The notes beneath the pieces are model-generated. The model was not told the origin of the DNA, ran no database searches, and saw only the letters and a program-made list of their open reading frames with translations. From Methanobacteriota archaeon (GTDB lineage Archaea; Thermoplasmatota; Thermoplasmata; SG8-5; DAIRED01), in assembly GCA_043799545.1 (NCBI GenBank), contig JAZDNO010000010.1, positions 1 through 36,281 of the forward strand: DNA of 36,281 bases, written 5' to 3'. How positions within the stretch are numbered: the first letter of the stretch is position 1; every line of letters begins with the position of its first letter. This document shows, one piece after another, positions 2,559 through 21,302 of this stretch. Both the position numbers and the translations under genes were made by a program.

Positions 2559-2567
2559 TGTTATCCC

Positions 2568-3843: not shown

Positions 3844-3868
3844 GCATTCGGATGAGCATGATGGTAAC

Positions 3869-5149
3869 ATGGCGGCGACTGCGGACTACGGCATAATGAT
3901 ATTCTTCTCCACAATCATAGTCCTGGCTTTAATATATATTTTCATGCACATGGATAATCTTCTGTATTATTTCAAGCTCAAGAAGGACAGGCGCATCGAG
4001 GACGACACGCTCGATTTCACCTTCGGGGCGATAAAAGTTCTGTGGGCTTCGCTTGCGGCGATGTTCCTCGTCGAGCTGGCTACGTTCCTCAAATTGGACT
4101 ACGCAGACGACGTGGCGCAGGCCATATACGATTACGTCTTCGCCATATTCGTCTTCTGCCTGGTCATAGTCGTCGTGTGGTTCGTTGCGAGGCTGGGGTC
4201 GAGGCACATCGAGCAGTCCATGCAGAAGGCGGTCGTGGACCCGAACGCATACATCAAGCCAGGGCTGTTGGAGTTCTACGAGCTGTTCGTGAAGTACTTC
4301 ATCTACGCCATCGGCTTCGTGTTCGCGACCTTCACGGCGATGGTCGCCATACCGGACGAGACCCAGAGGCAGCGCGTCTTCGACTGGATGGGGTTCGCCC
4401 GGCTGAACGTCGACGAATTGGCGGCCTCCCTGAGCGCGTACGTGATACTGCTAATAGTGTTCTTCCTCGTGTGGAAGCTGGCATCGTTGATGTTGGACGA
4501 CTTCAAGAAGAAGTCCACGAAGTTCCCCCCGCGAGTGATCGACCTGGTGAAGGCCTTTGTCCGGTACGGACTGACCTGGCTGGCCATGGTGGTCACGCTG
4601 ACGATAATCCTTGACCTCTTCAACTTCCAGTACGTCGAGATGGTCATATACGTCATAATCGCCGCCACGTTCATCCTCCTGCTGGTCGTGGCGTTCTCTC
4701 CGACGACCCGCGAGGGCTTCTCGGGAGTTGTCCTCCTCATCAGCGATTCTGTCAACAAGGATGACTGGATTTCCATCGACGGCGTGGCGGAGGGGCGTGT
4801 GGTGTCGCAGAACCTGCTGACGACCAGGCTCGCCGCGGAGAACGGGGAGATAATGGACGTGCCGAATTCGAAGATAACGTCGTCGGTGGTCAGGAACTGG
4901 ACCAAGACGGGGCGCGTCGAGGTCTCGTTGTCCCTTCCCTCCGGTGTGCCTGGTGCGACCGCGATGCGAAGCGCGGCGTCGATAGATGGCGTCAGCAATG
5001 ACCCGATGCCGGAGGTAGTCTCCAGGATACTTGAAAACGGAACGACCGCGAAGACTCTTAGGTTCTACGTCACTGATTTTCAAAGGCGTCGAGCAATATC
5101 CGAGTTGCTGACTGCGGAGTTTCTCCTGCAGGACTCGGGGAAGGCTTGA
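3869..5149 (+). CDS. Mechanosensitive ion channel (MscS family) with extended N-terminal membrane region
   Basis: About 8 hydrophobic segments, then an MscS-type beta domain (DWISIDGVAEGRVVSQNLLTTRL...VPNSKITSSVVRNWT). Confidence 0.72.
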   Translation: MAATADYGIMIFFSTIIVLALIYIFMHMDNLLYYFKLKKDRRIEDDTLDFTFGAIKVLWASLAAMFLVELATFLKLDYADDVAQAIYDYVFAIFVFCLVIVVVWFVARLGSRHIEQSMQKAVVDPNAYIKPGLLEFYELFVKYFIYAIGFVFATFTAMVAIPDETQRQRVFDWMGFARLNVDELAASLSAYVILLIVFFLVWKLASLMLDDFKKKSTKFPPRVIDLVKAFVRYGLTWLAMVVTLTIILDLFNFQYVEMVIYVIIAATFILLLVVAFSPTTREGFSGVVLLISDSVNKDDWISIDGVAEGRVVSQNLLTTRLAAENGEIMDVPNSKITSSVVRNWTKTGRVEVSLSLPSGVPGATAMRSAASIDGVSNDPMPEVVSRILENGTTAKTLRFYVTDFQRRRAISELLTAEFLLQDSGKA

Positions 5150-7367: not shown

Positions 7368-7385
7368 TTGCGACGGCATCCCTGC

Positions 7386-7418
7386 CCGTATATATAGGAT
7401 TTGGGATAGGTATAAATG
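7386..7418. promoter_or_regulatory. Back-to-back TATA boxes for the APC permease (minus) and alaX (plus)
   Basis: TATATATAG at 7389-7397 and TATAAATG at 7411-7418, each ~22-25 nt from the downstream ATG, consistent with leaderless archaeal transcripts. Confidence 0.5.
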
Positions 7419-7440
7419 CGCACCAGTATTTTTCCCGCAC

Positions 7441-8157
7441 ATGACGGAAATTCTGTTCATGAGGGACGCCGACGCGAACTACGTTCGGGAGTTCGAGGCG
7501 ACGGTCGTTTCCAAAGGGGAGAACTTCGTGGTCCTGGACAGGACCGCTTTCTACGCTGTCGGGGGAGGGCAGGAGACCGACACGGGCTCCCTTTCGTGGG
7601 AGGGCGGCTCCGCCAGTGTGAAGGAGGTCACGAAGAAAGGTGAGGTCAGGCACCGCCTGGACGGTCCAGTTCCTGATGCTGGCACAATTGTCCACGGCGA
7701 AATTGACTGGGAGCGCAGGCACGCCCACATGAGGATGCACACCGCCCAGCACATAATTTCCAGCGTCGTGTTTGATATATATAAAGCCCGAACCGTCGGG
7801 AACCAGATACACGCGGACAGGTCGCGCGTGGACTTCGCTCCCGCGAATTTCACCCAGGATGACGTGCAAAAAATCGAGGCCAAATGCAACGAGATTGCGG
7901 CGAAGGGAATCGGGGTGAGGATTTACGAGGAGGACCGAACCGAGCTGGAGAAGCGCGTGGACCAGCAGCGCGCGAACCTGGATCTGCTGCCCCAATCGAT
8001 ACGGCGGTTGAGAATCGTGGACATCGATGGCTTCGACGTGTGCCCGTGCGCCGGGACGCATGTCCGGAACACTAATGAAATTGGCAGGTTCCACATCCTG
8101 GAGCGCGAGAAAAAAGGGAAGGGCAGGGAGCGACTTACGTATGAATTGCTGGCATGA
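7441..8157 (+). CDS. alaXM: Alanyl-tRNA editing protein AlaX (AlaXM type)
   Basis: TAFYAVGGGQ..DTG, HxxxH (RMHTAQH) and CxGTH (CPCAGTHV) zinc-binding editing motifs, C-terminal RERLTYEL. Real start is ATG 7441 within the track ORF 7090..8157. Confidence 0.93.
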   Translation: MTEILFMRDADANYVREFEATVVSKGENFVVLDRTAFYAVGGGQETDTGSLSWEGGSASVKEVTKKGEVRHRLDGPVPDAGTIVHGEIDWERRHAHMRMHTAQHIISSVVFDIYKARTVGNQIHADRSRVDFAPANFTQDDVQKIEAKCNEIAAKGIGVRIYEEDRTELEKRVDQQRANLDLLPQSIRRLRIVDIDGFDVCPCAGTHVRNTNEIGRFHILEREKKGKGRERLTYELLA

Positions 8158-8266
8158 AGCGGATAGGAAACCGGACGAGCCGAGCTGGCGAGGTCCGAGT
8201 TTCTTTGCTCCAAATGCTTTCTTTGCGAGGGCCGAACCGGAGAGGCGATTCTCAAAGAAAGCGTTT

Positions 8267-8314
8267 AAGGGAAAAGACCGGGAACGGCTAACTTACGAGC
8301 TATTGGACGAGTGA
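8267..8314 (+). pseudogene. Orphan second copy of the alaX 3' end (KGKDRERLTYELLDE*)
   Basis: 12/13 residues identical to AlaX C-terminus KGKGRERLTYELL (8113-8151). No upstream AlaX sequence. Its TGA overlaps the ATG of the PAP2 gene. Confidence 0.65.
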
Positions 8315-8994
8315 TGAGCGCCATCCCCGTTAGGCCCGGGAGGATTGGCCCCGAAGACCGCGTTATGGCAACCATCGCCACAACGGCAGCCTTCTGCTTT
8401 GCCGCTCTAACATGGCTTGTTGTAGTGGGTGAGACGCAGGGATTCGACCATGCGGCGCTTGAAACCGTTTACAACTCGAACACGCCGACGACACTTATGA
8501 TTTTCCGGGCGGTTTCATTCGCTGGCTCCATGTGGGCGATTGCTGTCGTCACATGTTTTGCGGCCCTCTATTTTACTCTGCGAAAGCGCATCCGCACATC
8601 GGCATTCATCCTTGCAAGCGTCTCTGGGGCGTGGCTCCTGAATGAGGTCCTCAAGCTCGCCGTTTCGAGAGCCAGGCCGGAGCTGGGCTCCGATGTCTTC
8701 GCGACGGGATACAGCTACCCTAGCGCCCATACGATGGTCGGGATAAGCCTCTACATAACACTCGCCATAGCGCTTTCACCCCTTGTGGAGTCGCCGACAC
8801 GCAAGGCCGCACTCTGGATGTCCGCGGTGGCGCTGGTAGCGCTCATCGCACTCAGCCGCCCGTTCCTCGGCGCGCACTGGCCGACGGACGTGATGGGCGG
8901 CGCGCTTCTGGGCGCGGCCTGGGTAATATCATTGAGAGAGATCCGGATGAGATACCTGCAACACGAAAAAATTGAAAGCGCCGAAAAGTATTGA
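8314..8994 (+). CDS. PAP2-family (type 2 phosphatidic acid/undecaprenyl-PP-like) phosphatase
   Basis: Three PAP2 motifs: KLAVSRARP, YPSAH, SRPFLGAHWPTD; multi-TM. Alternative GTG start at 8311. Confidence 0.86.
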   Translation: MSAIPVRPGRIGPEDRVMATIATTAAFCFAALTWLVVVGETQGFDHAALETVYNSNTPTTLMIFRAVSFAGSMWAIAVVTCFAALYFTLRKRIRTSAFILASVSGAWLLNEVLKLAVSRARPELGSDVFATGYSYPSAHTMVGISLYITLAIALSPLVESPTRKAALWMSAVALVALIALSRPFLGAHWPTDVMGGALLGAAWVISLREIRMRYLQHEKIESAEKY

Positions 8995-9004
8995 AAAAGA
9001 AAGG
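8993..9004 (-). terminator. Possible archaeal oligo-T terminator for pnp
   Basis: CCTTTCTTTTTC on the minus strand ~20 nt after the pnp stop. Confidence 0.3.
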
Positions 9005-9025
9005 TTTTGCGGTCAGGTGTCCGTT

Positions 9026-11302
9026 TCAACGCCTTTCGCGCCTGTCGCCGCCCCTGCGGTCCCCGCCGCGCCTGTCGCCGCCGCGGCCGCCGCCGCGCCT
9101 GTCCCCGCCCCTGCTCGGAGGCCTGCGCTCGCGCCTCGGCTGCTCGACGTAGCCCTCTGGCTTCGGGAGAAGCTCGCGCGCCGAGACGTCGACCTTGCCG
9201 CGGTCTATGGATATGACCTTCACGCGGACCTTGTCCCCGAGCTTGAGCCTGTCCTCGACGTTCTCGACCCTGGCCCAGTCGATCTCCGAAACATGCAGCA
9301 GGCCGTCCTGGTTCGGCGTCAGCGTGACGAAAGCCCCGAAGCTCATCATCTTTACGACGACTGCCTCCTCGAAGATTTCGCCGATTTCGACGGTGCGCAC
9401 AAGGTTCTTGATTATCGTCTCCGCGGCCTTGGCCTTCTCCGAATCCGTGGAGGTGATTACTACCAAGCCCTCGTCGTTGACGTCAATCTGGACTTCGTAT
9501 TCCTCCGTAATCTTGCGGATGACCTTGCCGCCGGGGCCTATGACGTCGCCTATCTTCTCCGGGTCTATGTGGAAGCTGATTATCCTCGGAGCCCACTTGG
9601 AGAGTTCGGTCCTCGGGCCTGGCAATGAGGCCTCCATCACGTCGAGCACCTCGTTGATGCCCTTGCGCATCTGGACCACTGTCGCCTCGACCATCTCCAT
9701 CGTCAGGCCGCGCGTCTTGGTGTCCATCTGTATGGCCGTGATGCCCTGCCTGGTGGACGTGAACTTGAAGTCCATTCCTCCAGCGCCGTCCTCGAGGTCC
9801 TGCAGGTCGGTGATGACCTTCCACCTCTTGCCATCGCACGCGAGGCCCATCGCCATTCCTGCGACGTGCTTCTTCAGCGGGACGCCGGCGTCCATCAACG
9901 CCAGGGACGAACCGCAGGTCGAGGCCATCGAGGACGAGCCGTTGGAGCCCATGACCTCGCTGACGACACGTATCGTGTACGGGAAGTCGTCGTTCGCCGG
10001 CAAGACCGGCAAAATCGCCTTCTCGGCCAATGCGCCGTGGCCAATCTCGCGCCTGCCAGCGCCCCTAAGCGGCTTGACGTCGCCGACCGAGCACGGCAGG
10101 AAGTTGTAGTGGTGATAGTATGTTTTCGTGTAGTCCGCCTCGCCAGTCTCGACAGTCAGTTTGTCGCCCGGAGAGCCCAGGGTCACGACCGACAGGACCT
10201 GGGTCTCGCCCCTTGTGAATAGTCCAGTCCCGTGCACCCTCGGAAGCACGCCCGTCTCGGCAGTGAGAGGCCTTATCTGGTCGAGCGCGCGCCCGTCAAC
10301 CCTCTGGTCCCTGTCCAGGATTGCTAGCGTCACCTGCTCCTCTATGAAGCCGTAGAAGAAGCTGGATATCAGTTTCTTCACGTGCGATTCTGCCTGCGCG
10401 GCGTCCCTCGTCTTCGTCACAAGCGTCGGGGCGAACTGCGCCACGAGCTTGTCCTCGAGGTCGTGCAGTATGGCCTTGCGTGCGCCCTTGGAGCCCTTTG
10501 GCGTGTTGAACAGGTACTTCTCGAGGTGCGGCATCGCCGCCGCCTTTATCTTCGCAATTGCCGCCAGGTCCTCGGGGGCGTGCTGGCCGCTGAGCTTGAG
10601 CTGGTCGAGCGGGGTTTTGTCAGCGCCGACTTCCTTGCGGACAGTGTCCATGAACGCGGCCACCTGGCCGAGGGCTTCCATCGCCGCCTTGAAGCAGGCC
10701 TTCGTGTCCTTGTCGTCGACCTCCTTCGCGGAGCAGTCGACCATCGTGATGCGGTTTCCGTCGCCCATGACGACGAGGTTCATGTCCGAGAATTCCATCT
10801 CGTCCAGAGTCGGGTTGACTATGAAGTCCCCGTTTATCATCGCTATCCTCGCGCCGGCTATCGGGCCGTCGAAAGGTATGCGCGAGAGGTGCACCGCCGC
10901 GCATGCGGCGACCATCGCCACAACATCCGGCTTGTTCACTCCGTCCAGCGCGAGCGGCATGCATATTATCTGCACATCGTTCTTTATGTTCTGCGGGAAG
11001 AGCGGCCTGAGGCCGCGGTCAATCATCCTGCTCGTCAGGACCGCATCGGTCGAAGGCCTGCCCTCGCGCTTCGAGAACCTCGGGCCCTTTATCTTTCCGG
11101 CCGCGAAGTAGCGCTCCTCCAAATCGACCATCAGGGGGAAGAAGTCCATCCCCTCCCGGCACGTCTGCGACATGCTTGCCGTAGCGAGAACGACCGTCTC
11201 TCCGATCTGCGCGACGACCGAGGCGTCTGCCTGGTTCGCGAACTTTCCTATCTCCAACGTGAGCTTTTTGTCGTGCCACGTCATTTCGAATTTCTGTGTC
11301 AT
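9026..11302 (-). CDS. pnp: Polyribonucleotide nucleotidyltransferase (bacterial-type PNPase: two RNase PH domains, KH, S1)
   Basis: FFPLMVDLEERYFAAGKIKG..KREGRPS, RMIDRGLRPLFP, RVDGR..DQIRP, GLFTRGETQ, RREIGHGALAE, SNGSSSMAS, EDGAGGMDFK, KH (IGDVIGPGGKVIRKI), S1 (FGAFV..DGLLHVSEI). ATG 11302 (MTQKFE). Confidence 0.97.
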   Translation of the reverse strand: MTQKFEMTWHDKKLTLEIGKFANQADASVVAQIGETVVLATASMSQTCREGMDFFPLMVDLEERYFAAGKIKGPRFSKREGRPSTDAVLTSRMIDRGLRPLFPQNIKNDVQIICMPLALDGVNKPDVVAMVAACAAVHLSRIPFDGPIAGARIAMINGDFIVNPTLDEMEFSDMNLVVMGDGNRITMVDCSAKEVDDKDTKACFKAAMEALGQVAAFMDTVRKEVGADKTPLDQLKLSGQHAPEDLAAIAKIKAAAMPHLEKYLFNTPKGSKGARKAILHDLEDKLVAQFAPTLVTKTRDAAQAESHVKKLISSFFYGFIEEQVTLAILDRDQRVDGRALDQIRPLTAETGVLPRVHGTGLFTRGETQVLSVVTLGSPGDKLTVETGEADYTKTYYHHYNFLPCSVGDVKPLRGAGRREIGHGALAEKAILPVLPANDDFPYTIRVVSEVMGSNGSSSMASTCGSSLALMDAGVPLKKHVAGMAMGLACDGKRWKVITDLQDLEDGAGGMDFKFTSTRQGITAIQMDTKTRGLTMEMVEATVVQMRKGINEVLDVMEASLPGPRTELSKWAPRIISFHIDPEKIGDVIGPGGKVIRKITEEYEVQIDVNDEGLVVITSTDSEKAKAAETIIKNLVRTVEIGEIFEEAVVVKMMSFGAFVTLTPNQDGLLHVSEIDWARVENVEDRLKLGDKVRVKVISIDRGKVDVSARELLPKPEGYVEQPRRERRPPSRGGDRRGGGRGGDRRGGDRRGGDRRERR
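9031..9112 (-). repeat. RGGD/RRGG low-complexity C-terminal tail of PNPase
   Basis: Encodes ...RGGDRRGGGRGGDRRGGDRRGGDRRERR; plus-strand near-repeats of CCTGTCGCCGCC. Confidence 0.8.
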
Positions 11303-11315
11303 TTCAACACCGTTT

Positions 11316-11472
11316 CCTTTGCGTATAAACAAGCTGCCTCGGCCTTGCGGGGCGAAATGGACCATTTGCGGTCCGATGAGCCTCAACTTGAATGCGGGCC
11401 CCCTCCCGGGGTCCCCGTTGGCGGTCTCGCCGCCATCGGCATTCCAGCCGTTAATAGCCTGCCTTTTGCGTA
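11316..11472 (-). ncRNA. Structured pnp 5' leader or upstream ncRNA (five hairpins)
   Basis: Hairpins at 11437-11450, 11419-11435, 11395-11417, 11359-11374 and 11336-11353, with purine-rich loops on the pnp sense strand. Bounded by a TACGCAAA(A)GG near-direct repeat. Confidence 0.45.
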
Positions 11473-11582
11473 GTAGGGTAGATTATGGTATATAATAAAG
11501 CTTTTGATTCCCGTATAACATCGTGTAAAAGGTTTTATGGATAGTCCCCTCTGCACCGTTGGCTCGATGCCTGGTGAGTCCT

Positions 11583-14183
11583 ATGAGCACAAAGGAGTCG
11601 TCCGCGAGCGCCACGGCGCTCAAGGGCGCGGCGAAGCTTGATGGTCCCCTCGGTGGCTATTCCCTGAATTCGGAGGGCAAGCCCGCATGTTCCGAGGCCT
11701 GTCCCGCAGGCATCGACGTCAAGGCGTACGTCAATCTCATCGCGGACAAACGCTACGAGGAAGCCGTCGCAGTCATCAGGCGCGCCAATCCGTTCCCCGG
11801 AGTCTGCGGCAGGGTCTGCACCCACCCGTGCGAGGGCGAGTGCCAGAGGGGAGAGTTCGACGACCCCGTTGCCATCAAGGCGCTCAAGCGCTTCGCATCC
11901 GACTACGAGAGGGCGAGGCGGTGCCCGGCCCCTGTGGTTAAGCTTGGCAAGAAAGGAAGGGTGGCGATAATCGGCGCCGGTCCAGCGGGTCTCACTGCCG
12001 CATACGATTTGGCTTTGTCCGGTCACCCCGTCGTTGTTTTCGACTCCGCAAAATATGCCGGCGGCATGCTCGGCTGGGGGATACCCAGCTTCAGGCTGCC
12101 CAGGGAGATCGTCCGCGGGGAGGTCATGCAGATTTCCGACCTCGGCGTGGACATCAGGCTTGGCGAGAAGGTAACCGATCCGTCCGCCTTGCTGAGGAAA
12201 GGCTTCTCGGCCGTCGTCGTCGCCGCCGGATGCATGGTCCCGGTCCCCATAGGCGTCGAGGGAGAGGATTCCGATGGCGTGCTGGACTGCATAGATTTCC
12301 TGAGGGGGGCGAGCGAGGGCGACGTGAAATCGCTGAAAGGGAAGACCGTCGTCGTCGGCGGCGGAAACGCCGCGCTCGACGCCGCCAGGATGGCGCTGCG
12401 TCTCGGCTCGGACGTGACGATAGCGTACAGGCGAACGGAAGCCGAGATGCCGGCGGACAGAGCAGAAATCCAGGAGGCCAAGGAGGAAGGCATCAAATTC
12501 GAGTTCCTGGCCATGCCGAAAAAGGTCGTTGCTTCGGAAGGCAAAGTGACGGGGCTGGTCGTCCAGCGCGCCAAGCTGGGGGAGCCGGATGCAAGCGGGA
12601 GGCGCGCCCCCGTTGGAATACCGGGCAGCGTTTTCAAAATCGACGCGGACTGGATAATAAGGGCTGTGGGTTCGAAGCCCGATTCCAAGCTCCTGGAATC
12701 CGGGGGACTGAAGCTCACACCCACAGGCACGATTGAGGCCGACGAGAATGGAAGAACCTCGGTGAAAGGGGTCTTCGCCGCGGGGGATGTGGTTTTGGGT
12801 CCGGCTACCGTCGTCGAGGCCATAGGCAGCGGCCATGCGGCCGCGGCTGGAGTCGTCGAACATCTGGGCGGGCCTAAAGCAGCTTCCCGCGATGAGTCGC
12901 AAGACCGCGTCTACGTCCTGGAGAAGATGCCAGAGGCCAAGGCTGGTCGGGCGAAACCCCCCAAGGTCCCGGCGCTGGCCCGCAAGTCGAGCTTCGAGGA
13001 AGTCGAGGGCGCGCTCGACGAGCTGAGCGCGGTCGCCGAGGCATCCAGATGCAGGCGCTGCGGGCTCTGCTCCGACTGCGACGTCTGCCTTTCCGGCTGC
13101 CACCACAGGCAGGCGGTCCTGCTCAGCGAGGGAAGCGGCCCCAAATGGGTCAAGGTCCCCCTGAATTTCTCCAGGCGGCTCGTCGAGGACCACGCCACGC
13201 GCGAGGGGTGGAGATTGTCGACCGATGGGAAGGTGGCCGAGGCGAGGCTGGAACCCGTCCAGGCGTTCGTCGATTCCGACCTTTGCATCGCGTGCGGGCT
13301 TTGCGAGGAAGCCTGTGTTTACCGTGCGGTGAGGGTGCGATTCAACAGAAACGACTCGCCGTCCGCCGCAGTGGACCAGGAGGGCTGCAGGGCGTGTGGC
13401 GCTTGCGCCGGAGTCTGCCCGACTGGAGCCGTCTCTATGGGATTCATGGACGATGATAAATTGTTCGTGCGTGCGCGCGAGGCTGCGTCGGAATCCAAGG
13501 GAGGAATAGTCACATTCGGCTGCATCTGGCAGGATTCGGGGCGCCTTGCTTCGAAGCCCGGCGTGGTTCCGGTGATTTGCACGAGGCGCGTCTCACCCGC
13601 GTTCGTGCTCGAAGCGCTCGCGTCGGGTGCTTCCGGGGTCGCGCTTGCTGGCTGCCCCGATGGGGAGTGCCACTACCTGCCCGGGCCGTGGATGGGCGCT
13701 GACATGCCGGACAAGGTCGGCAAGATTCTGGAATCTGTGGGAATCGACAAGCGCCGCGTCAAGTACATCGAATCCTCCGGAGACCATACGAAAGCCGTCA
13801 AACAATTCGCAGCCACTCTGAAGAAGTCCAAGCTCGGGCCGATGCCGGACGCCGCGCGGACGCTGCCTGAAATCCGTGCGCCGCTCGGAAGGGCGATTTC
13901 GCTGGCGCACGTCCTCATGGCTGCCCAGGATTCGAAACCATCCAAGGGCAGGAAGGTCGATTATTTGCTCGCAGCGGGCTGCTCGCCGATTTGCGATTCC
14001 GCTCTCATGGCGCACGGCATCGACGGTTCGGGCGAGTTCCTGGACTCCGTGTCCGTGTTGCTCAAGGCATGCGATATCGATTTCACGCGCAGCCCGAGAG
14101 TCCTCGGCCCGGGGTCGAAGCTGAAGAAATGGGGCTCGACGGACTTTACAAGGATTACGGAAAGGCAGCCATCGAGGCAGTGA
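11583..14183 (+). CDS. Multidomain Fe-S flavoprotein: GltD/SudA/DsrL-like NAD(P)H oxidoreductase + 2x[4Fe-4S] + MvhD-like domain + start of a CCG-like domain
   Basis: CSEACPAG..CGRVCTHPCEGEC (Fer4_20), GAGPAG, GGGNAALD..YRR, CRRCGLCSDCDVC, CIACGLCEEAC, CRACGACAGVCP, FGCIW..VICT..GCPDGECHY. GGTGA ribosome-binding site upstream of ATG 11583. Confidence 0.85.
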   Translation: MSTKESSASATALKGAAKLDGPLGGYSLNSEGKPACSEACPAGIDVKAYVNLIADKRYEEAVAVIRRANPFPGVCGRVCTHPCEGECQRGEFDDPVAIKALKRFASDYERARRCPAPVVKLGKKGRVAIIGAGPAGLTAAYDLALSGHPVVVFDSAKYAGGMLGWGIPSFRLPREIVRGEVMQISDLGVDIRLGEKVTDPSALLRKGFSAVVVAAGCMVPVPIGVEGEDSDGVLDCIDFLRGASEGDVKSLKGKTVVVGGGNAALDAARMALRLGSDVTIAYRRTEAEMPADRAEIQEAKEEGIKFEFLAMPKKVVASEGKVTGLVVQRAKLGEPDASGRRAPVGIPGSVFKIDADWIIRAVGSKPDSKLLESGGLKLTPTGTIEADENGRTSVKGVFAAGDVVLGPATVVEAIGSGHAAAAGVVEHLGGPKAASRDESQDRVYVLEKMPEAKAGRAKPPKVPALARKSSFEEVEGALDELSAVAEASRCRRCGLCSDCDVCLSGCHHRQAVLLSEGSGPKWVKVPLNFSRRLVEDHATREGWRLSTDGKVAEARLEPVQAFVDSDLCIACGLCEEACVYRAVRVRFNRNDSPSAAVDQEGCRACGACAGVCPTGAVSMGFMDDDKLFVRAREAASESKGGIVTFGCIWQDSGRLASKPGVVPVICTRRVSPAFVLEALASGASGVALAGCPDGECHYLPGPWMGADMPDKVGKILESVGIDKRRVKYIESSGDHTKAVKQFAATLKKSKLGPMPDAARTLPEIRAPLGRAISLAHVLMAAQDSKPSKGRKVDYLLAAGCSPICDSALMAHGIDGSGEFLDSVSVLLKACDIDFTRSPRVLGPGSKLKKWGSTDFTRITERQPSRQ

Positions 14184-14683
14184 AATCTTCCAAGGCCAAA
14201 TCGGTCATAGCCATATCGCACGAGGCCCTCTCAAAATTCGAGGGGCAATGGCAGAAGGATTTCGGGAAGCTGGGTTTCGATTTCGTGAGCCTGCCATCGA
14301 TTCTCATGAAGAACTTGCCAGAGGGCGCATTCCGGAGCACGCCCGGGAAGATTGCGTTCCACCCAGCCTGCGGAGGGGGCAATTTCTCAAAGGAATTGCT
14401 CGGCCTGCTGGCCGTTGTCCCCGGCGTCGAGACCGCCGTCATCGAAGCGGGTTGCGGCGAGACCGCCTGGATAGAGCCAAGCGCCGAGAACCGGGCCAAA
14501 GCGCACCGGCTCCTGGCGAAGGCCGAGGCTGCTGGCGCGGGAACCCTCGTCGTCGAATCGCACCAGTGCCTCGCGCACCTCCTCGCGTCGCAAATGGGAT
14601 GGAGGGAGAATGGCTTGGAAGTGACAGACATCTATTCTTTCCTGGCATCGAGGCTCGCGGGGGTGAAGGCAAATGAAGAATGA
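14129..14683 (+). CDS. C-terminal CCG (HdrD/GlpC-like) domain remainder, likely frameshifted continuation of 11583..14183
   Basis: GLDGLYKDYGKAAIEAVK..KSVIAISHEA, FHPAC, AGCG, GAGTLVVESHQCLAHL follow HdrD/GlpC spacing with Cys substitutions. Part of track ORF 13991..14683. Confidence 0.65.
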   Translation: MGLDGLYKDYGKAAIEAVKSSKAKSVIAISHEALSKFEGQWQKDFGKLGFDFVSLPSILMKNLPEGAFRSTPGKIAFHPACGGGNFSKELLGLLAVVPGVETAVIEAGCGETAWIEPSAENRAKAHRLLAKAEAAGAGTLVVESHQCLAHLLASQMGWRENGLEVTDIYSFLASRLAGVKANEE

Positions 14684-16787
14684 CGCGGCGAATCCCTCGA
14701 AAACGAAACCGGATTTGACACTCCGCATCTCGGAGCATCCGATACTGGCATATCCCTCGCTGCCCGACATCCCTTTCAAGTTCAACGGCAATCCGCTCAT
14801 GGCGATAAATGGGGAGATGATTTCGAGCGCACTCATAGCCAACGGCATCAGCGCCTTCAACAGGCACCACCGCGACGGCGCGCCGCAGGGCATCTTCTGC
14901 GCGAACGGCCAGTGCGCCCAGTGCCTAGTTCTGGCGAACGGAAGGCCCGTGAAGGCCTGCGTGACCCCTGTCAAAAAGGGCATGGACGTCCGCTTCCTGG
15001 ACGGCCTGCCGGATCTGCCGGCGGACGACGCCGAGCCTGGACCCGCCAACATTGAAACCGTTGGCGTGGATGTCCTCGTCATTGGCGGCGGCCCGGCGGG
15101 AATGATGGCGGCGGTCGAGCTTGGCCGCGCGGGGGTCGATGTCCTGGTGGTAGACGACAAGCAGGAGCTCGGCGGGAAACTAGGCCTCCAGACGCACAAC
15201 TTCTTCGGCTCGAAACGCGATTGTTACGCCGGGATGAGGGGCATGGACATCGGTACGATGCTGGCCGCGCAGGTCGGGACTCTGAAAAACGTCGAGGTCT
15301 GGCTCGATTCCCCGGCGGTTGGCGCATTCGAGGATGGGCTCGTTGGCGTGGTCAAGGGCGGAGTCTTCAGGCTCGTCAGGCCGAAACGCCTGCTCGTCAC
15401 GGCCGGGGCGCGGGAGAAGGTCCTGACGTTCCCTGGCTGCGACCTGCCTGGCGTCTACGGCGGCGGGGCGTTCCAGACCCTCGTCAACAGGGACATGGTG
15501 AAGGCCGCAAAGAGGCTATTTATTGTTGGCGGCGGAAACGTCGGCCTCATCGCAGCCTACCATGCCATACAGGCAGGAATAGAGGTCGTCGGCATTGTCG
15601 AAGCCCTGCCGCAGTGTGGAGGCTACAAGGTCCATCTCGACAAGATAAAACGCCTCGGAATCCCAGTCTGGACTTCGAGCACCGTGCTGAAGGCGGAGGG
15701 AGACTGCAAGCTCGCGCGCATCACGACGGCGAAGGTCGATTCGTCTTTCAAGCCAATCGCTGGAACGGAGAGGTCTTTCGATGTGGACACGCTCCTCATC
15801 GCAGTCGGCCTGACTCCCGTGAACGAGATTCTGGCCCAGGCCAGGACCTTCGGGTTCAAGACCTTCGCCGCCGGCGACGCGGACATCATCGCGGAGGCGT
15901 CGGCGGCGATGTTCAGCGGCCGCATCGCCGGACGGCAGATACTCAGGGACATCGGGCGCGACGCCGCGATACCGAAGGAGTGGCTCGACACGCTCGCGCT
16001 GCTCAGGGCGAAGCCAGGGCCGACGCACGAGTTGGCGGCCAAGCGCAGCGACGGCTCGGTGTATCCCGTCATCCGCTGCGTCCAGGAGATACCATGCAAC
16101 CCGTGCACGGCCGTGTGCCCCGTGAACTCCATCAAGACCTCCGACGGCACGATGAGCGCTTTGCCGTCATTCTCGAACATATGCCTCGGCTGCACGAGGT
16201 GCGTGGCGATTTGCCCGGGCCTTGCAATCACCCTAGTCGACAGAGGATACGACCCAGCCGGGGAGCGGGCGCTGGTTTACATACCGTGGGAACTGCCAGC
16301 TGGTTCGCTGAAACCTGGGGATTCCGTAACCACCGTCGGCTTGGAAGGGGAAAGCATCGGCAACGGCAAGGTCGTCGCGATGAAGGGTTCCGCGTGGCAG
16401 AACAGGCGCCACATCGCGGCGATAGACGTCCCTGCTCGGGACGCGGACATGGTCGCCGGCATACGGCTCTTCAACGATCCGGCACAGGTGCCAGGTAAAA
16501 TGCCGGAGCCTTCCGACGACGGAGCGACAATCATATGCCGCTGCGAGCGCGTGACGAAGGAGGAGATAGAATCGTACGTGCGCGAGACGGGCGTGCGCGA
16601 CTTCAACGCGCTCAAGGCCGCCCTGCGCGTGGGCATGGGCCCGTGCGGGGGAAAGACCTGCTCCGACCACGTGATGCGCCTGTTCAAGCAGGTGCTGGGC
16701 AGGGACGCGGTCATAGAGAAGCACGTCGAGCGCCCGTTCACGCAAGAGGTCCCCATGTCGGCATTCCTCGGGGGTGACGAGCAATGA
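14673..16787 (+). CDS. Fused alpha-type subunit of a dye-linked L-proline/sarcosine/opine dehydrogenase-type complex ([2Fe-2S] + FAD oxidoreductase + [4Fe-4S] + BFD-like [2Fe-2S])
   Basis: GIFCANGQCAQC..KAC, GGGPAG, GAREK..FPG.DLPGV, GGGNVG, CVQEIPCNPC..CP..CLGCTRCVAICPG, ICRCERVT..GMGPCGGKTC. Confidence 0.82.
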   Translation: MKNDAANPSKTKPDLTLRISEHPILAYPSLPDIPFKFNGNPLMAINGEMISSALIANGISAFNRHHRDGAPQGIFCANGQCAQCLVLANGRPVKACVTPVKKGMDVRFLDGLPDLPADDAEPGPANIETVGVDVLVIGGGPAGMMAAVELGRAGVDVLVVDDKQELGGKLGLQTHNFFGSKRDCYAGMRGMDIGTMLAAQVGTLKNVEVWLDSPAVGAFEDGLVGVVKGGVFRLVRPKRLLVTAGAREKVLTFPGCDLPGVYGGGAFQTLVNRDMVKAAKRLFIVGGGNVGLIAAYHAIQAGIEVVGIVEALPQCGGYKVHLDKIKRLGIPVWTSSTVLKAEGDCKLARITTAKVDSSFKPIAGTERSFDVDTLLIAVGLTPVNEILAQARTFGFKTFAAGDADIIAEASAAMFSGRIAGRQILRDIGRDAAIPKEWLDTLALLRAKPGPTHELAAKRSDGSVYPVIRCVQEIPCNPCTAVCPVNSIKTSDGTMSALPSFSNICLGCTRCVAICPGLAITLVDRGYDPAGERALVYIPWELPAGSLKPGDSVTTVGLEGESIGNGKVVAMKGSAWQNRRHIAAIDVPARDADMVAGIRLFNDPAQVPGKMPEPSDDGATIICRCERVTKEEIESYVRETGVRDFNALKAALRVGMGPCGGKTCSDHVMRLFKQVLGRDAVIEKHVERPFTQEVPMSAFLGGDEQ

Positions 16788-17968
16788 GCACTGCGGGCCA
16801 TAAGGATTACGACGCCATCGTCCTGGGAGCAGGCAGCGTCGGCGTTCCTATAACATATTTCCTGTCGAAGGAGGGGCTGCGCGTCCTGTGCCTCGACCCG
16901 CTGGCTTCGGCTGGCCAGGGGCAGAACAAGGCCGCGATTGGCGGCGTCAGGGCGACGCACTCAGACCCAGCGAAGATACTGATTTGCAAGGAGAGCCTGC
17001 GTATATTCGGCGCGTGGGAGGAAGAGACTGGCACGAGCATCGGCTGGAAGAAGGGCGGCTACTGCTTCCCGGTTTACCGCGAGCAGGAGGAGGAGCTGCT
17101 CCAGTCCCTGCTTCCGATACAAAAGCGATTCAAACTGAGCATAGACTGGCTCGACGCGAAGGGGATAGGAAAAACCGTGGCGGGCATCAATCCCGCGGGG
17201 CTGCGTGGCGGCACGTTCTCTCCCGAGGACGGCCAGATTTCGCCGCTGACGGCGATGGAGTCGTTCGCCAACGAAGCCCGGAAGCTGGGCGCGGATTTCC
17301 ATTACCGAGAGGGCGTGGAATCGCTGATACTGGAAGGAGATTCATCTAAAGCCATCAAGGGCGCCAAGACGGCTAAGGGCGAGTACCGCGCTCCCGTCGT
17401 CGTGAACGCTGCGGGCGCGGATGCCAGCGCGGTGTGCAGGATGGCTGGCGTCGCCATCCCGGTCGTTCCGGACAGCCACGAGGCGGGCATCACGTCGCCA
17501 TTGAAGCAGTTCCTCGGACCATTGGTCGTCGACATCAGGCCAGGCCCCGAAGGGAGGACTACCAACTTCTACTTCGGCCAGGTGGAGAGCGGCCAGGTAA
17601 TCTTCTGCTACACGCCGAAACCGCTGTTCCCGGGAACTGACAGGGCTTGCACGTCGGAGTTCATGCCGATAATCGCCAGGCGGATGGCCGGACTGATTCC
17701 GAGGTTGAAGGGCCTGACGATAAGGAGGCTCTGGCGCGGGCTTTATCCAATGACGCCTGACGGAGTGGCCGTGATGGGCAAAGCGCCTGGCGTCGATGGC
17801 TTCTACCTCGCAATCGGCATGTGCGGACAGGGGTTCATGATGGGGCCAGGCGTGGGCTCGAACATGGCGAATTTGATAACAAAGGGAAAGCCTATTCTCG
17901 ACCCCGATACTTTCGCCCTTCTGAGCCCGTCGAGGGACTTCACCAAGGGGAAAGAAAAGCTGAAGTAG
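16784..17968 (+). CDS. FAD-dependent oxidoreductase, DAO family (beta subunit of proline/sarcosine dehydrogenase-type complex)
   Basis: GAGSVG dinucleotide motif, VVVNAAG, RRLWRGLYPMTPDG, GMCGQGFMMGPGVG. ATGA overlap with the upstream gene. Confidence 0.85.
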   Translation: MSTAGHKDYDAIVLGAGSVGVPITYFLSKEGLRVLCLDPLASAGQGQNKAAIGGVRATHSDPAKILICKESLRIFGAWEEETGTSIGWKKGGYCFPVYREQEEELLQSLLPIQKRFKLSIDWLDAKGIGKTVAGINPAGLRGGTFSPEDGQISPLTAMESFANEARKLGADFHYREGVESLILEGDSSKAIKGAKTAKGEYRAPVVVNAAGADASAVCRMAGVAIPVVPDSHEAGITSPLKQFLGPLVVDIRPGPEGRTTNFYFGQVESGQVIFCYTPKPLFPGTDRACTSEFMPIIARRMAGLIPRLKGLTIRRLWRGLYPMTPDGVAVMGKAPGVDGFYLAIGMCGQGFMMGPGVGSNMANLITKGKPILDPDTFALLSPSRDFTKGKEKLK

Positions 17969-17969: not shown

Positions 17970-19277
17970 CTACCTGGGCTTCGGATTCCCGCGCTGCGCC
18001 TTGCCGCGCTTGGCCTTCAGCTCGTCCCTTACCATCTTGATGGCGCACAAGTCGCCGCACATCGAGCAGACCTCGTCCTCGGCCGGCCGCCTGCGCGCCC
18101 TGACCGCCCTGGCGTTCTCCGGGTCCAGCGAGCAGGCGAATTGCCCCTCCCAGTCCAACGCTTTGCGCGCTTTCGCCATGGCGATGTCGCGCTCGAATCC
18201 GATTCCGCGAGTAACGTCCGCCGCATGCGCTGCGATAATGCTGGCAATCGTGCCGACCTTCACATCTTCGACCGTTGGCAGCGAGAGATGCTCCGCCGGT
18301 GTGACGTAGCACAGGAAGTCGGCCCCGGCCATGGCCGCGATTGCACCGCCTATCGCGCCTGTGATGTGGTCGTAGCCAGGGGCGATGTCCGTGACCAGCG
18401 GTCCGAGCACGTAGAACGGCGCTCCCTTGCATATCGACTTCTCAATCGCCACGTTGGCGGCTATCTGGTGCATCGGGACGTGGCCGGGTCCTTCGACCAT
18501 GGCCTGGACTCCCGCCGCGCGTGCGCGCTCCACGCATTCCCCCAGAGTCATGAGCTCGCGAAGCTGCGGCGCGTCGGTGGCGTCGGCCAGGCATCCAGGC
18601 CTGAAGCCGTCGCCGAGGCTCAGCGTGAACTCGTGCTTGCGGGCCAACTCTAGGAGGTAACCGTAGTTGGAATATAGGGGATTCTCCTCCCCATGATGAA
18701 GTATCCACGCGGTGAGGAAAGCCCCTCCGCGGCTCACTACGTCCGTGATTCTCCGCGAGCGGCTCAGAAGCTCCACGCTCTCCCTCGTCACCCCGCAGTG
18801 GACCGTCATGAAGTCAACGCCGTCGCGGGCGTGCTTCTCTATCGCGTTGAACAGCGTGTCCTCGGTCATGTCTACGACGGCGCTCCTCCTGGCGGTCTCC
18901 ATGCCAGCCTGGTATATCGGCACGGTGCCGATGGGGAGGCGCACATCCTTCATGATCCTGCGGCGGATACTGTCAATGTCCCCGCCGGTGCTAAGGTCCA
19001 TTATGGCGTCTGCGCCGAACTCGATGGCGACCCTCGCCTTTCGCATCTCCTCCTTGATGTCGACATGGTCGTTCGAGGTGCCGATGTTGACGTTCACCTT
19101 GACCCGGAGGCCTTCGCCGATGGCCCTCGGCTCGGGGGAATGGACCGGGTTGCTGGGCAGGACTACCCGCCCTTCCCTAATTTGCCTCGCCAGCCTCTCC
19201 GGAGACACCCCTTCGATTTTGGCTGCTTCGGAGACCAGCTTCGGAATCCGCCTTCGGCATTCCCCCATCAGCGTCAT
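17970..19277 (-). CDS. thiC: Phosphomethylpyrimidine synthase ThiC (ThiC/BzaB family)
   Basis: KVNVNIGTS, GADAIMDLSTGGD, GTVPIYQ, SRGG, EGPGHVP, YVTPAEHL, C-terminal CSMCGDLCA Fe-S motif. Start ATG 19277. BzaA/B paralogy cannot be excluded. Confidence 0.88.
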   Translation of the reverse strand: MTLMGECRRRIPKLVSEAAKIEGVSPERLARQIREGRVVLPSNPVHSPEPRAIGEGLRVKVNVNIGTSNDHVDIKEEMRKARVAIEFGADAIMDLSTGGDIDSIRRRIMKDVRLPIGTVPIYQAGMETARRSAVVDMTEDTLFNAIEKHARDGVDFMTVHCGVTRESVELLSRSRRITDVVSRGGAFLTAWILHHGEENPLYSNYGYLLELARKHEFTLSLGDGFRPGCLADATDAPQLRELMTLGECVERARAAGVQAMVEGPGHVPMHQIAANVAIEKSICKGAPFYVLGPLVTDIAPGYDHITGAIGGAIAAMAGADFLCYVTPAEHLSLPTVEDVKVGTIASIIAAHAADVTRGIGFERDIAMAKARKALDWEGQFACSLDPENARAVRARRRPAEDEVCSMCGDLCAIKMVRDELKAKRGKAQRGNPKPR

Positions 19278-19343
19278 GTTGGCGAACCAATGGCAGATGG
19301 GGTAGAAAATAGTATTGTCTTTTCCACCATCGCACTTGCATGT

Positions 19344-21302
19344 ATGATAACTATTACGCAAATATTATATACAAGGATACTTTACGTCGATTTCCTGGGG
19401 GAAAAAAGCACGAGTAAGTCTCAACTCCACAAGCATGGCATCACAAACGGTACTGGCGGGGGGTTCACCAACGGCGCTGGCAATGGGAAAACCAGCGGCC
19501 TCACAAACGGCGCTGGCCGCGGCAGGACGAACGGCATCGGGCGCACGAACGGGCTCGTGAACGGTTCGGGCAAGGGCAGGACAAACGGGTTGACAAACGG
19601 TTCTGGTCGCGGCAGGACGAACGGCGTAGGCCGCACGAACGGGCTCACCAACGGCTCGGGACGCGGCCGCACGAACGGCCTAACAAACGGCATGGGCCGG
19701 ACCAATGGCATTACTAACGGTCTCGGAAGAACAAATGGCATCACGAACGGTCTGGGCCGGACCAATGGGCTAACCAACGGCCTCGGCCGCACAAACGGAA
19801 TGACCAACGGCCTCAATTCATACAGGATGGACGACCGGAACGGTGCAGTCGCGCCCCGAAAGCTCTCGACGATTCTAATCATAGTTTTCATCATCATCAT
19901 GCCAGTGTCCATCGGCTTGCTGATTCAGTCGCAACCGGTCCCCGGACAGATCGTCACGGTGGACGGCAAGTTCAAGGACTGGAACAAGATGACGCGGTAC
20001 GTCGACACAACTATGTACGCAGACCCTGTGCTGGACATAACGGAATTTTCCGTCGCGGTCGAAGGCACGGACTTCTTCGCCTACGTTAAAACGCAGGGCA
20101 ACCTGCTATCCAGGGCGACGATGGACAGGTACTTCGCTTTCATAGACGCCGACGGCAGCCCATCGACGGGATATGCGGCGCTCGGCCTAGGGGCAGAATA
20201 CGTCGTCGAAGCCTACGGCCACAACGGAGGCTCGTGGGGAGTTTCAGCAACTAAGTTCTTCGGCGCAGACCAGTCGAACTGGAGCGCCTTTGGCACTATC
20301 GGCTCAGGCCACGCTGAATCCTCGGACAGCGAGATGGAAATGAAGGCGAGCCTCGACCTCGGGACGGGTCACGAGCTCGACGTTGGTGGCGCGCTCCGCG
20401 TCAGGTTCGCAACCATGACTGGCTCCGCGCTCGCGGACGTTTGCGCCCCCGTCGTAGACGGAAAGAACGGCGCGCTCGTCATAACCCAGACCCCGCAGGA
20501 CGCTGCAGGCATCGTTTCCACCGGCTCGCTCCTCTCCCTCCAGCTCAGGGCCGTGGGCAAAGACGTCGCTGTCAATTCGCTGGCCATCGCTGCGCAGGGA
20601 GTTCCATCGACGACCCAAGCTGGCTTCGCGGCAGGCGAGATTGCCGTGAACTCCGCCCTGACTGTTCAGGTCACGGGGGATGTCGCATCTTTGGCGGACG
20701 GCACGCTGGTCAAGGCCAGTGTTACGTCTGCTGCGGTATCCGGTGCGACCTTCAACGTGAACGGCAACAGCCTTGCCGCGTATGCAAAGTCCGCGCCGGC
20801 GGCAATCGCGATAGACGGCGCATTCGCAGACTGGACAGGTATCCAGAAGACGACGGACGCAGCCTCAGACGTACCGAACCCTAACATCGATATCACCGAA
20901 GCCGCGGCCGCATCACAGTCGAGCAGCTTCCTCGCCTATGTCAAATTCAACGGCGCGGGAACGGCGATGTCGGGCGCCGCAGTCCCCAGCACCAGAACGG
21001 TTCCTGCAGGAGGCGGGGGCGGTGGAGGTGGCGGCGGAACCACCACTATAACGCCTAGAGTCGCTGGCGAGGATGTCACGCGCTTCTACATCGACAGCGT
21101 GGCCGGCGGGAGCGCCATCGGCGGAATCTCTGCGGACTACATGATTGAGCTCAAGGGGCAAGAACGGCCAGATTACATCCAAGCGGGTCTACACATACCC
21201 CGCGAGGACGTTCGTCGCGGACGTTTCGGCAGCGAACGGGGCGGGCGCGATAGAAACCAGCGTCGCGTACAGTTTGATTGGCAACCCGACGGGAACGATT
21301 AG
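19344..21302 (+). CDS. Large cell-surface protein, N-terminal part (TNG repeats, TM helix, two DG-F-DW ectodomain modules, poly-Gly linker); apparently frameshifted at ~21155-21158
   Basis: TNG repeats, TM LSTILIIVFIIIMPVSIGLLI, VTVDGKFKDW and IAIDGAFADW modules. Sensible protein sequence continues in the next frame after ..YMIELKG. Start uncertain: ATG 19344 is the nearest in-frame ATG upstream of the repeats. Confidence 0.7.
   Translation: MITITQILYTRILYVDFLGEKSTSKSQLHKHGITNGTGGGFTNGAGNGKTSGLTNGAGRGRTNGIGRTNGLVNGSGKGRTNGLTNGSGRGRTNGVGRTNGLTNGSGRGRTNGLTNGMGRTNGITNGLGRTNGITNGLGRTNGLTNGLGRTNGMTNGLNSYRMDDRNGAVAPRKLSTILIIVFIIIMPVSIGLLIQSQPVPGQIVTVDGKFKDWNKMTRYVDTTMYADPVLDITEFSVAVEGTDFFAYVKTQGNLLSRATMDRYFAFIDADGSPSTGYAALGLGAEYVVEAYGHNGGSWGVSATKFFGADQSNWSAFGTIGSGHAESSDSEMEMKASLDLGTGHELDVGGALRVRFATMTGSALADVCAPVVDGKNGALVITQTPQDAAGIVSTGSLLSLQLRAVGKDVAVNSLAIAAQGVPSTTQAGFAAGEIAVNSALTVQVTGDVASLADGTLVKASVTSAAVSGATFNVNGNSLAAYAKSAPAAIAIDGAFADWTGIQKTTDAASDVPNPNIDITEAAAASQSSSFLAYVKFNGAGTAMSGAAVPSTRTVPAGGGGGGGGGGTTTITPRVAGEDVTRFYIDSVAGGSAIGGISADYMIELKGQERPDYIQAGLHIPREDVRRGRFGSERGGRDRNQRRVQFDWQPDGND
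19437..19811 (+). repeat. Tandem G(R/L/I)TNG peptide repeats (~20 TNG in 125 aa)
   Basis: GRTNGLTNG units read directly; synonymous codons vary between copies. Confidence 0.9.

Follow-up and report, generated by a model that had tools for sequence, protein, structure and literature searches.

This study concerns a three-gene locus in a contig of 36,281 nucleotides (JAZDNO010000010.1; this whole stretch is referred to below as the window) from the metagenome-assembled genome (MAG) of an uncultured anaerobic Thermoplasmatota archaeon. All three genes lie on the + strand. Gene 1 begins with an ATG at 11583, as seen from its open reading frame (ORF) and translation, and its first frame of about 851 codons (11583..14134) encodes an NfnB/GltD-type NADP(H) flavoprotein, a six-cysteine (Cys6) motif, a 2x[4Fe-4S] ferredoxin domain, an MvhD domain and the start of a CCG-like tail; the remainder of this degenerate HdrB-like (CCG-derived) tail is found in the -1 frame (14135..14683, with the stop at 14681-14683). 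Gene 2 (14673..16787), assigned from its ORF and Pfam matches, encodes an alpha subunit of 704 amino acids. Gene 3 (16784..17968), which overlaps gene 2 by 4 nt, encodes a beta subunit of 394 amino acids, a DAO-family catalytic flavoprotein (Pfam DAO, E 5.6e-53). An earlier description made from the letters alone, hereafter the sequence-only reading, had reported three co-oriented, overlapping genes. The orientation and the overlap of genes 2 and 3 stand, but gene 1 is broken as sequenced, and its 11-nt overlap with gene 2 (gene 1 end at 14683, gene 2 ATG at 14673) exists only if a frameshift is read through. On the sequence evidence, we consider it about evenly balanced whether the locus encodes an undescribed soluble three-subunit iron-sulfur flavoenzyme, in which a heteromeric L-proline dehydrogenase core with an NADP(H) accessory would perform a confurcation of the FngABC type.

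Proline oxidation poses a problem for strict anaerobes that use neither quinones nor oxygen, as the potential of the couple of proline and pyrroline-5-carboxylate (P5C) lies about 200 mV too high to reduce NAD+. The 'dye-linked' archaeal proline dehydrogenases, those of Thermococcales included, have long been known, but no physiological acceptor is known to us for them. Hundreds of uncultured archaeal and bacterial species carry the fused alpha-beta pair, which is homologous, module by module, to FngABC. If the pair works like FngABC, amino-acid catabolism would join lactate, glycerol and acyl-CoA oxidation among the processes enabled by confurcation. FngABC of P. furiosus, published in October 2026, confurcates electrons from glycerol 3-phosphate (G3P; -190 mV) and reduced ferredoxin to form NADH, and represents the fifth bifurcating family (PMC13689815).

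Domain structure and reading frame of gene 1

The N-terminal part of gene 1 contains a Fer4_20 domain with two [4Fe-4S] sites of the GltD/NfnB/DPD type (11679..11918, +; residues 41-120 of the translated first frame, P0001; Pfam E 2.7e-21), followed by an FAD/NAD(P)H domain of the Pyr_redox_2 family (11958..12833, +; residues 134-425 of P0001; E 5.6e-39). In a conservation census of 58 full-length gene-1 homologues, which underlies the conservation figures given for this protein, the six Fer4_20 cysteines were present in 98-100% of the sequences and the YRR motif (12426-12434, +) was invariant. The flavoprotein matches NfnI-L (5JCA_L) in sequence with an E-value of 2e-77. For an orthologue with 78% identity, AlphaFold2 predicts a compact structure with high confidence (pLDDT 89.4, pTM 0.84). 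The N-terminal half of this model superposes on NfnI-L (TM 0.80, root-mean-square deviation 1.9 Å) and also on those NADP(H) parts of NfnABC and StnABC that resemble GltD.

The flavoprotein is separated from the ferredoxin domain by a stretch with the motif CxxCxxCxxCxxCxxxC (13050..13100, +). The six cysteines of this motif, which is a probable extra Fe-S site, are 100% conserved. The 2x[4Fe-4S] ferredoxin domain of the HdrA C-terminal type (13284..13418, +; Pfam Fer4/Fer4_7/Fer4_21) has eight invariant cysteines, with two Fer4 motifs at residues 569-627 of P0001, and the C-terminus of the NCBIfam HdrA2 model (NF040770, E 1e-34) matches the ferredoxin-MvhD segment (residues 554-738 of P0007). 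The MvhD (FlpD) domain (13515..13823, +; residues 669-755 of P0001; Pfam FlpD E 4.3e-19) matches MvhD in the Protein Data Bank (PDB; entries 7BKB_F and 5ODC_D), and its four cysteines, all within 13515-13679 in the window copy, keep the [2Fe-2S] site in this clade. Across the fused family, the cysteine quartet is retained in about 55-60% of members and jointly lost in the rest. The domains listed in the sequence-only reading (Fer4_20, a flavoprotein with YRR, 2x[4Fe-4S] and a four-cysteine MvhD) are all present by Pfam or translation, although that inventory missed the invariant Cys6 motif.

Four motifs mark the tail of gene 1, namely HPAC (14357-14380, +), GCGE (14447-14464, +), HQCLAH (14558-14581, +) and GW (14591-14614, +). 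The CCG-like domain named in the sequence-only reading is recognizable through relatives, such as the tail at locus L032 (E 3.4e-10) and the separate CCG genes at L045 and L064 (E 1e-18), but the tail of the window copy gives no Pfam CCG match even at E 5 and lies in the -1 frame. Neither CCG motif is intact: the first reads LGPG without CxxC and the second GCGE...CxxH, and most cysteines are lost. Four cysteines and two histidines are conserved at >=90% across the homologues, and a single metal site probably survives.

The sequence-only reading had also considered a disulfide acceptor. In that case the tail would be a working Hdr-type active site with a thiol/disulfide couple as the high-potential partner, which we regard as highly improbable. 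The tail does descend from HdrB/HdrD/GlpC-type CCG domains, its conserved four cysteines and two histidines are consistent with a surviving metal site, and in some bacteria the CCG domain of the protein is better preserved (E 1e-18). However, HdrB requires two complete CCG motifs (CXnCCXnCXXC), with ten cysteines, for its two noncubane clusters, and neither HdrB nor HdrD is matched by a tail with LGPG and GCGE...CxxH. Furthermore, several orthologues (L039-L043) lose even the degenerate motifs, and thiol-cofactor genes are not linked. Judged by these motifs, degeneration of the tail has gone too far for disulfide chemistry of the Hdr type, and the proposed disulfide acceptor is therefore not supported. 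Gene 1 resembles HdrA2-MvhD in its ferredoxin-MvhD segment with a four-cysteine MvhD in the window copy, whereas its flavin domain is of the NfnB type and the thioredoxin-reductase-like flavin domain of HdrA is absent. Unlike in Hdr systems, a hydrogenase or heterodisulfide context is absent at the trio: no HdrA, hydrogenase or HdrBC gene was found at this locus in the window, as the sequence-only reading had stated.

As sequenced, gene 1 ends at a stop at 14183, and the rest is encoded in the -1 frame up to 14683; the sequence-only reading described gene 1 as one fusion and overlooked this break. Alignments of DNA and protein place the frameshift at 14131..14135 (+), where a run of four G residues followed by C is one base short compared with intact orthologues (expected TGG GGN CTC). 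In the DNA alignment with the intact orthologue at L137, the missing base falls between 14134 and 14135, directly after the G4 run at 14131-14134 (window, AAATGGGG-CTCGAC; L137, AAATGGGGACTGGAC), and TGG GGA CTG is found at the break position in intact orthologues. In the protein alignment, the first frame holds through ...KLKKWG and the second from LDGLYKDY... onwards. The nearest orthologues are single proteins of 1032-1033 amino acids with 78% identity, and both of the nearest relatives have an intact gene 1 together with the gene order PAP2-PNPase-trio.

Either the assembly is wrong at this site or the gene was inactivated recently; an error is favoured owing to the homopolymer at the break and the otherwise clean 3.1-kb frame. 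That gene 1 is a pseudogene in this organism, with only an alpha-beta core working with free ferredoxin and NAD+, is possible, although we lean away from it. Such a state would agree with the one-base deletion, which is followed by an in-frame stop 49 nt on, and with alpha-beta without gene 1 being the commonest natural state. On the other hand, no second defect is seen in about 3.1 kb, the two halves are otherwise open and share 78% identity with intact orthologues, and a gap at a homopolymer is in the classic place for an assembly or sequencing error. Two further explanations of the break were rejected. A natural split into two genes is contradicted by the bacterial split forms, which divide right after MvhD (771 + 292 amino acids) and not inside the first CCG motif, and by the downstream frame, which has no start in register. 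Programmed -1 frameshifting is contradicted by the absence of a slippery heptamer and by the orthologues, which are in frame.

The alpha-beta core and its characterized relatives

The alpha subunit (P0003) carries four cofactor regions on the + strand. Its N-terminal [2Fe-2S] domain (Fer2_4; 14769-14993) is followed by an FngB/HcnB-type FAD and NAD(H) fold (Pyr_redox_2, residues 133-390; 15069-15842), a Cys8 insert for a 2x[4Fe-4S] dicluster (16077-16214) and a C-terminal BFD [2Fe-2S] domain (Fer2_BFD; 16530-16688). In heteromeric amine dehydrogenases, the published [2Fe-2S] motifs are Cx4Cx2Cx11-12C, at the gamma subunit or the alpha N-terminus, and CxCx15-20Cx4C in alpha (PMC4575208). The first is fitted exactly by C76-x4-C81-x2-C84-x11-C96 and the second is present as C622-x-C624...C658-x4-C663, with a spacer of 33 residues compared with the published 15-20; both are invariant. 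The 16 cluster cysteines do not vary, either among 13 or among 42 homologues. In the FAD fold, the two GxGxxG motifs, GGGPAG and GGGNVG, are invariant, as is the Glu after the second Rossmann strand, and the fold is of the NAD(H) type. A comparison with the PDB gave SoxA and PH1363 (1Y56_A) as structural matches of alpha. For beta (P0004), the DAO match spans residues 10-363, and the best solved relative is the beta subunit of P. horikoshii PDH1 (1Y56_B), which matches nearly end to end with an E-value of 1.1e-48, the next being 1e-22 or weaker. The likeness of the last two genes to Thermococcales L-proline dehydrogenase that was noted from the sequence is thus borne out by 1Y56_B for beta and by 1Y56_A and SoxA for alpha.

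The Thermococcales L-proline dehydrogenases (L-ProDH; P. horikoshii PDH1, alpha4beta4, 1Y56; T. profundus, alpha-beta-gamma-delta) share beta nearly end to end, and the N-terminus and FAD fold of the trio alpha match PH1363. The alpha [2Fe-2S] motif Cx4Cx2Cx11C, described for L-ProDH alpha (PMC4575208), is also shared. However, the 704-residue alpha of the trio also holds the Cys8 dicluster insert and BFD in the same chain, the host is an anaerobic Thermoplasmatota MAG, and a subunit of roughly 1030 amino acids with NADP(H), MvhD and CCG parts is unlike anything in a characterized proline dehydrogenase. The bacterial alpha-beta-gamma opine dehydrogenase (OpnDH), D-hydroxyproline dehydrogenase (D-HypDH) and HcnABC follow the same subunit logic, with a DAO beta, a Pyr_redox_2 alpha and a [2Fe-2S] gamma, and have the same ADP-binding and cluster motifs, including the alpha CxC...Cx4C (PMC4575208). 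The trio family differs in that its alpha incorporates gamma and has an additional dicluster insert, its hosts are anaerobic and its electron partner is an NAD(P)H/MvhD module instead of a respiratory chain.

Like FngABC, the trio has a DAO-family flavin, a BFD [2Fe-2S] cluster, an FngB-type FAD/NAD(H) subunit and a [4Fe-4S] port, and the donor is too positive for NAD+. FngB itself is placed in an InterPro family for 'cyanogenesis / opine oxidation / G3P dehydrogenation' (PMC13689815). Over residues 133-389, alpha shares 31% identity (E 3e-29) with the FngB-like subunit at L136, and the alpha BFD and beta match, respectively, the BFD and DAO domains of FngA-like proteins in Thermoplasmatota Fng-like operons. 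Unlike FngABC, however, the trio has BFD on the alpha C-terminus and not on the DAO chain (FngA is DAO + BFD, and P0004 is DAO only), and the DUF1667 [4Fe-4S] subunit (FngC) is absent, with the dicluster insert in its place. In addition, alpha has an extra N-terminal [2Fe-2S] domain, the substrate would be an amine and not G3P, and gene 1 has no counterpart; neither proline nor MvhD is mentioned in PMC13689815. The presence of DUF1667 within alpha was ruled out by Pfam and by hhalign against the DUF1667 alignment (probability 0.2%), and PF07892 (DUF1667) was not found in a search of the whole genome of the window.

Fng-like operons, consisting of DAO+BFD, Pyr_redox_2 and DUF1667, were found in 32 of 201 Thermoplasmatota genomes. 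Those inspected (L136, 3018-7988; L135, 2928-7344) lie beside a prolyl oligopeptidase (S9) or a LarA-like gene and not beside glycerol genes; owing to this lack of glycerol gene neighbours, their substrate may not be G3P.

Residues of about 35-500 of gene 1 match the large subunit of NfnSL/NfnAB (5JCA_L/4YLF_B, E 1e-77 to 1e-84) and the GltD-like NADP(H) parts of NfnABC/StnABC (9BOV_A, 9N5U_A and 8OH5_C), and the Fer4_20 cysteines, the FAD and NADPH site and YRR are conserved as in NfnL. Nevertheless, unlike in Nfn, a gene for the NfnA/NfnS partner is found neither in the operon nor in any of 13 related loci, and unlike in NfnABC/StnABC there is no NuoEF (Bfu) core, the gene-1 module being fused to Cys6, ferredoxin, MvhD and CCG-like parts and linked to an amino-acid dehydrogenase. 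By its domains and motifs, the trio belongs to the heteromeric DAO-type amine dehydrogenase superfamily but lacks two defining features of Fng (DUF1667 and BFD on the DAO chain) as well as those of Nfn (NfnA) and of Hdr (HdrA and complete CCG motifs). No description of NfnB/MvhD/CCG or NuoF modules attached to a proline dehydrogenase was found in open-access papers and preprints, and the literature likewise yielded no characterized enzyme of the same architecture, in agreement with the sequence-only reading, which did not recognize it from characterized systems.

Gene linkage and distribution

A near-full-length gene 1 is present in 14, and alpha in 41, of 301 Thermoplasmatota genomes, and all 14 full-length gene-1 copies adjoin alpha-beta. 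Linkage of the fusion to the dehydrogenase genes, as proposed in the sequence-only reading, is thus the rule in relatives, which do not carry the fusion unlinked. The order gene 1, alpha, DAO is found in each of the 13 Thermoplasmatota loci that were fetched (55-64% identity for alpha and 59-71% for DAO), and none of the flanking genes is conserved among these loci. The three genes form a real unit in which gene 1 is an optional accessory, as alpha-beta often occurs without it.

With the alpha alignment as query, at least 578 loci were recovered from species-representative genomes. They are spread over Thermoplasmata, Heimdall- and Bathyarchaeota and many phyla of bacteria, and neighbourhoods were counted on the 80 best of these loci. 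DAO follows alpha in 72 of the 80; among the other eight, the contig ends right after alpha in five and only about 1 kb further downstream in a sixth. About 14-20 of the 80 loci carry an NfnB-type module, which lies upstream of alpha in 14, fused in Thermoplasmata and split in bacteria; for example, a Coatesbacteria MAG has NfnB-Fd-MvhD (771 amino acids), CCG (292 amino acids), alpha and DAO as separate genes. A NuoF-type (Complex1_51K) protein with a Fer2_4-polyferredoxin-MvhD protein is found instead in 6/80. The MvhD proteins of both module kinds have in common the ferredoxin-MvhD segment and the C-terminal tail motif G-W-R...V, and this shared segment and motif identify the MvhD and CCG-derived adaptor as the common element. 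On a tree of alpha, the module label is clustered (12 changes, compared with 31 in shuffles), and within one bacterial subclade NfnB- and NuoF-type modules are interleaved on closely related alphas. If true, the attachment of NfnB- and NuoF-type modules through a single common adaptor of MvhD/CCG origin would illustrate the way in which bifurcating cores gain nicotinamide ports.

In a Bacillota MAG (JAKOVL010000216.1; L101, 4156-8070), one ORF of 1304 amino acids comprises Fer2_4, polyferredoxin, MvhD and the tail together with a complete alpha. Among the available evidence for a putative physical association of adaptor and alpha, this Rosetta-stone fusion is the strongest. A NuoF-like gene precedes the fusion ORF at this locus, and a fragment of an aldehyde:ferredoxin oxidoreductase (AOR) gene lies upstream. 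A 1368-residue ORF at L082 was considered as a second adaptor-alpha fusion and was not counted, as only alpha domains were found in it by Pfam. A complex prediction for alpha residues 1-600 and gene-1 residues 610-1005 of L047, made with separate alignments and without controls, gave an ipSAE of 0.00 and speaks neither for nor against binding. The NADPH/MvhD module is portable, since it is also attached to a different enzyme: in Fidelibacterota CP070638.1 (L044, 3005-9574), a four-gene 2-oxoacid:ferredoxin oxidoreductase operon is followed by NfnB-Fd-MvhD (793 amino acids), which is partnered by an HdrD-like 2x[4Fe-4S]+CCG protein of 389 amino acids.

Substrate, mechanism and competing explanations

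The substrate of alpha-beta is probably L-proline, and most likely so on sequence comparisons because beta is closest to PDH1 beta, P5C dehydrogenase (P5CDH) genes are neighbours of the pair, and the genome has a P5CDH with no Pro_dh found. Genes for P5CDH, an aldehyde dehydrogenase of 540 amino acids, flank alpha-beta in 10/80 loci and are the commonest functional neighbours; every tested member passes TIGR01236, the model for P5C/glutamate-semialdehyde dehydrogenase (751-806 bits; cut-off 613.6). One spirochaete operon contains GntR, P5CDH, NfnB-Fd-MvhD, CCG, alpha and DAO. In the genome of the window, which is 94% complete, a P5CDH positive for TIGR01236 (774 bits) is present and no PutA-type Pro_dh was found by Pfam searches. 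AOR genes stand co-oriented directly after DAO in four Desulfobacterales loci (L090, L104, L107 and L120; about 9225-11500) and near alpha-beta in two further loci. An AOR next to DAO could oxidize glutamate semialdehyde and so supply reduced ferredoxin to a confurcating proline dehydrogenase.

The sequence-only reading had offered a substrate of the proline, glycine or sarcosine type; the amino-acid dehydrogenase is kept and the context of P5C dehydrogenase narrows it to proline. We hold it unlikely that the core oxidizes another amine, such as sarcosine, D-proline, hydroxyproline, glycine or an opine. Substrate switching is easy in the DAO superfamily, none of the three trio proteins, including P0004 and P0003, reaches any NCBIfam cut-off, and no proline gene lies beside the operon in the window; moreover, the OpnDH subfamily is near archaeal L-ProDH without using proline (PMC4575208). 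Against these points, PDH1 beta leads all other relatives of solved structure by 26 orders of magnitude in E-value, the TIGR01236-positive P5CDH that is the commonest neighbour stands in the same operon as the full system in L064, and no PutA-type enzyme was found in the genome that could feed its P5CDH.

The proline/P5C couple, at about -123 mV, is by itself unable to reduce NAD(P)+. If proline is the substrate, the core would therefore work like FngABC. In the mechanism proposed here, beta would oxidize proline to P5C, which would proceed to glutamate through the P5C dehydrogenase of the genome. Alpha would combine a gamma-like [2Fe-2S] cluster, an FngB-type FAD with an NAD(H)-type fold, the 2x[4Fe-4S] insert and the BFD [2Fe-2S] cluster in a single chain, so that high-potential electrons from proline and low-potential electrons could converge at its FAD and reduce NAD+ in a reversible confurcation. 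The MvhD/CCG-derived adaptor of gene 1 may dock on alpha and link the iron-sulfur port of the core to the NADP(H) site, either replacing free ferredoxin or acting beside it. This connection of NADP(H) to the Fe-S port is inferred because the YRR flavin of gene 1 ends a long Fe-S chain, like the GltD-like parts of NfnABC/StnABC. A core with the Fng cofactor logic would explain why alpha-beta usually stands alone, and the widespread alpha-beta core, rather than the MvhD/CCG fusion, is likely to be the bifurcating unit. The coupling to NADP(H) or ferredoxin by bifurcation or confurcation that had been suggested from the sequence therefore remains plausible, given the precedent of FngABC and the homology of FngB to the alpha flavin domain, but its seat is likely to be this core. 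The purpose of the complex is probably the oxidation of proline without oxygen or quinones. The host metabolism is anaerobic and ferredoxin-based: neither a haem-copper oxidase (COX1) nor a cytochrome bd oxidase was found in the genome of the window, which has four 2-oxoacid:ferredoxin oxidoreductase alpha genes and NiFe hydrogenases.

Several points weigh against this proposal. While the domain anatomy, its conservation and the linkage of the genes are observed, the substrate, complex formation and bifurcation, as well as the direction, are inferred from homology and gene context. Since the FngC-type DUF1667 is absent and BFD is on alpha and not on the DAO subunit, the Fng mechanism is transferred by analogy only, and the FngB motif Q-C-[IV]-H reads Q-T-H-N in alpha. 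Gene 1 carries a frameshift in this assembly. The MvhD cluster ligands are gone in about 40% of the fused family, and MvhD is thus not a universal electron bridge; most alpha-beta loci are without gene 1, and the core reaction therefore does not need it. P5CDH genes adjoin the pair mainly at loci without gene 1, with only L064 having both. Furthermore, NADPH is by estimate a marginal thermodynamic driver compared with ferredoxin.

The same complex might also operate without bifurcation. Gene 1 would then be a plain GltD-like NADPH input and the enzyme reductive toward P5C or another imine, or else electrons from proline would pass to an unidentified high-potential acceptor. GltD and DPD use FAD with 2x[4Fe-4S] without bifurcation (PDB matches 2VDC_G, 6S6S and 1H7X), the GltD-like part is the terminal NADP(H) site in NfnABC/StnABC, and the reduction of P5C by NADPH is exergonic. 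This simpler arrangement nevertheless seems improbable, as roughly ten cofactors in three subunits would duplicate the single-subunit ProC, the neighbouring P5C dehydrogenase and AOR genes indicate a catabolic direction, and the NAD(H)-type fold of alpha with its invariant Glu would be unnecessary for a linear chain. The operon also encodes no quinone-linked or membrane subunit. A more elaborate arrangement is doubtful, namely a ferredoxin-independent double-flavin machine in which the Fng-type FAD of alpha and the Nfn-type flavin of gene 1 would be hard-wired through the adaptor and catalyze Pro + NADPH + 2 NAD+ <-> P5C + NADP+ + 2 NADH. If true, such a transhydrogenation would be a new reaction class, and an amino acid would for the first time form the high-potential leg in flavin-based bifurcation.

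Apart from the confurcating core proposed above, the window contains several neighbouring genes. A divergent gene for a bacterial-type PNPase (RNase_PH x2, KH, S1; 9026-11386, -) lies upstream of the trio and is also kept in the two nearest relatives (e.g. L137, 1032-3314), and a convergent ThiC gene (17970-19361, -) lies downstream. About 4 kb upstream of the operon, a 796-residue fusion of an amino-acid permease and a universal stress protein (Usp) domain (5070-7460, -) shows no sign of proline specificity. Elsewhere in the same genome (L138; G000:C10:76500-88500), a NuoE-like gene, a NuoF-GltD/NfnB fusion of 1049 amino acids (Complex1_51K + NADH_4Fe-4S + Fer4_20 + Pyr_redox_2), a NuoG-N-terminal-like gene and a NiFe hydrogenase large subunit are found at 284-5876, followed at 6094-10682 by a sulfhydrogenase-like set (a Fer4_22/FAD/NAD subunit, small and large subunits and HycI). 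This region resembles a Bfu/Nfn-ABC-style module on a NiFe hydrogenase.

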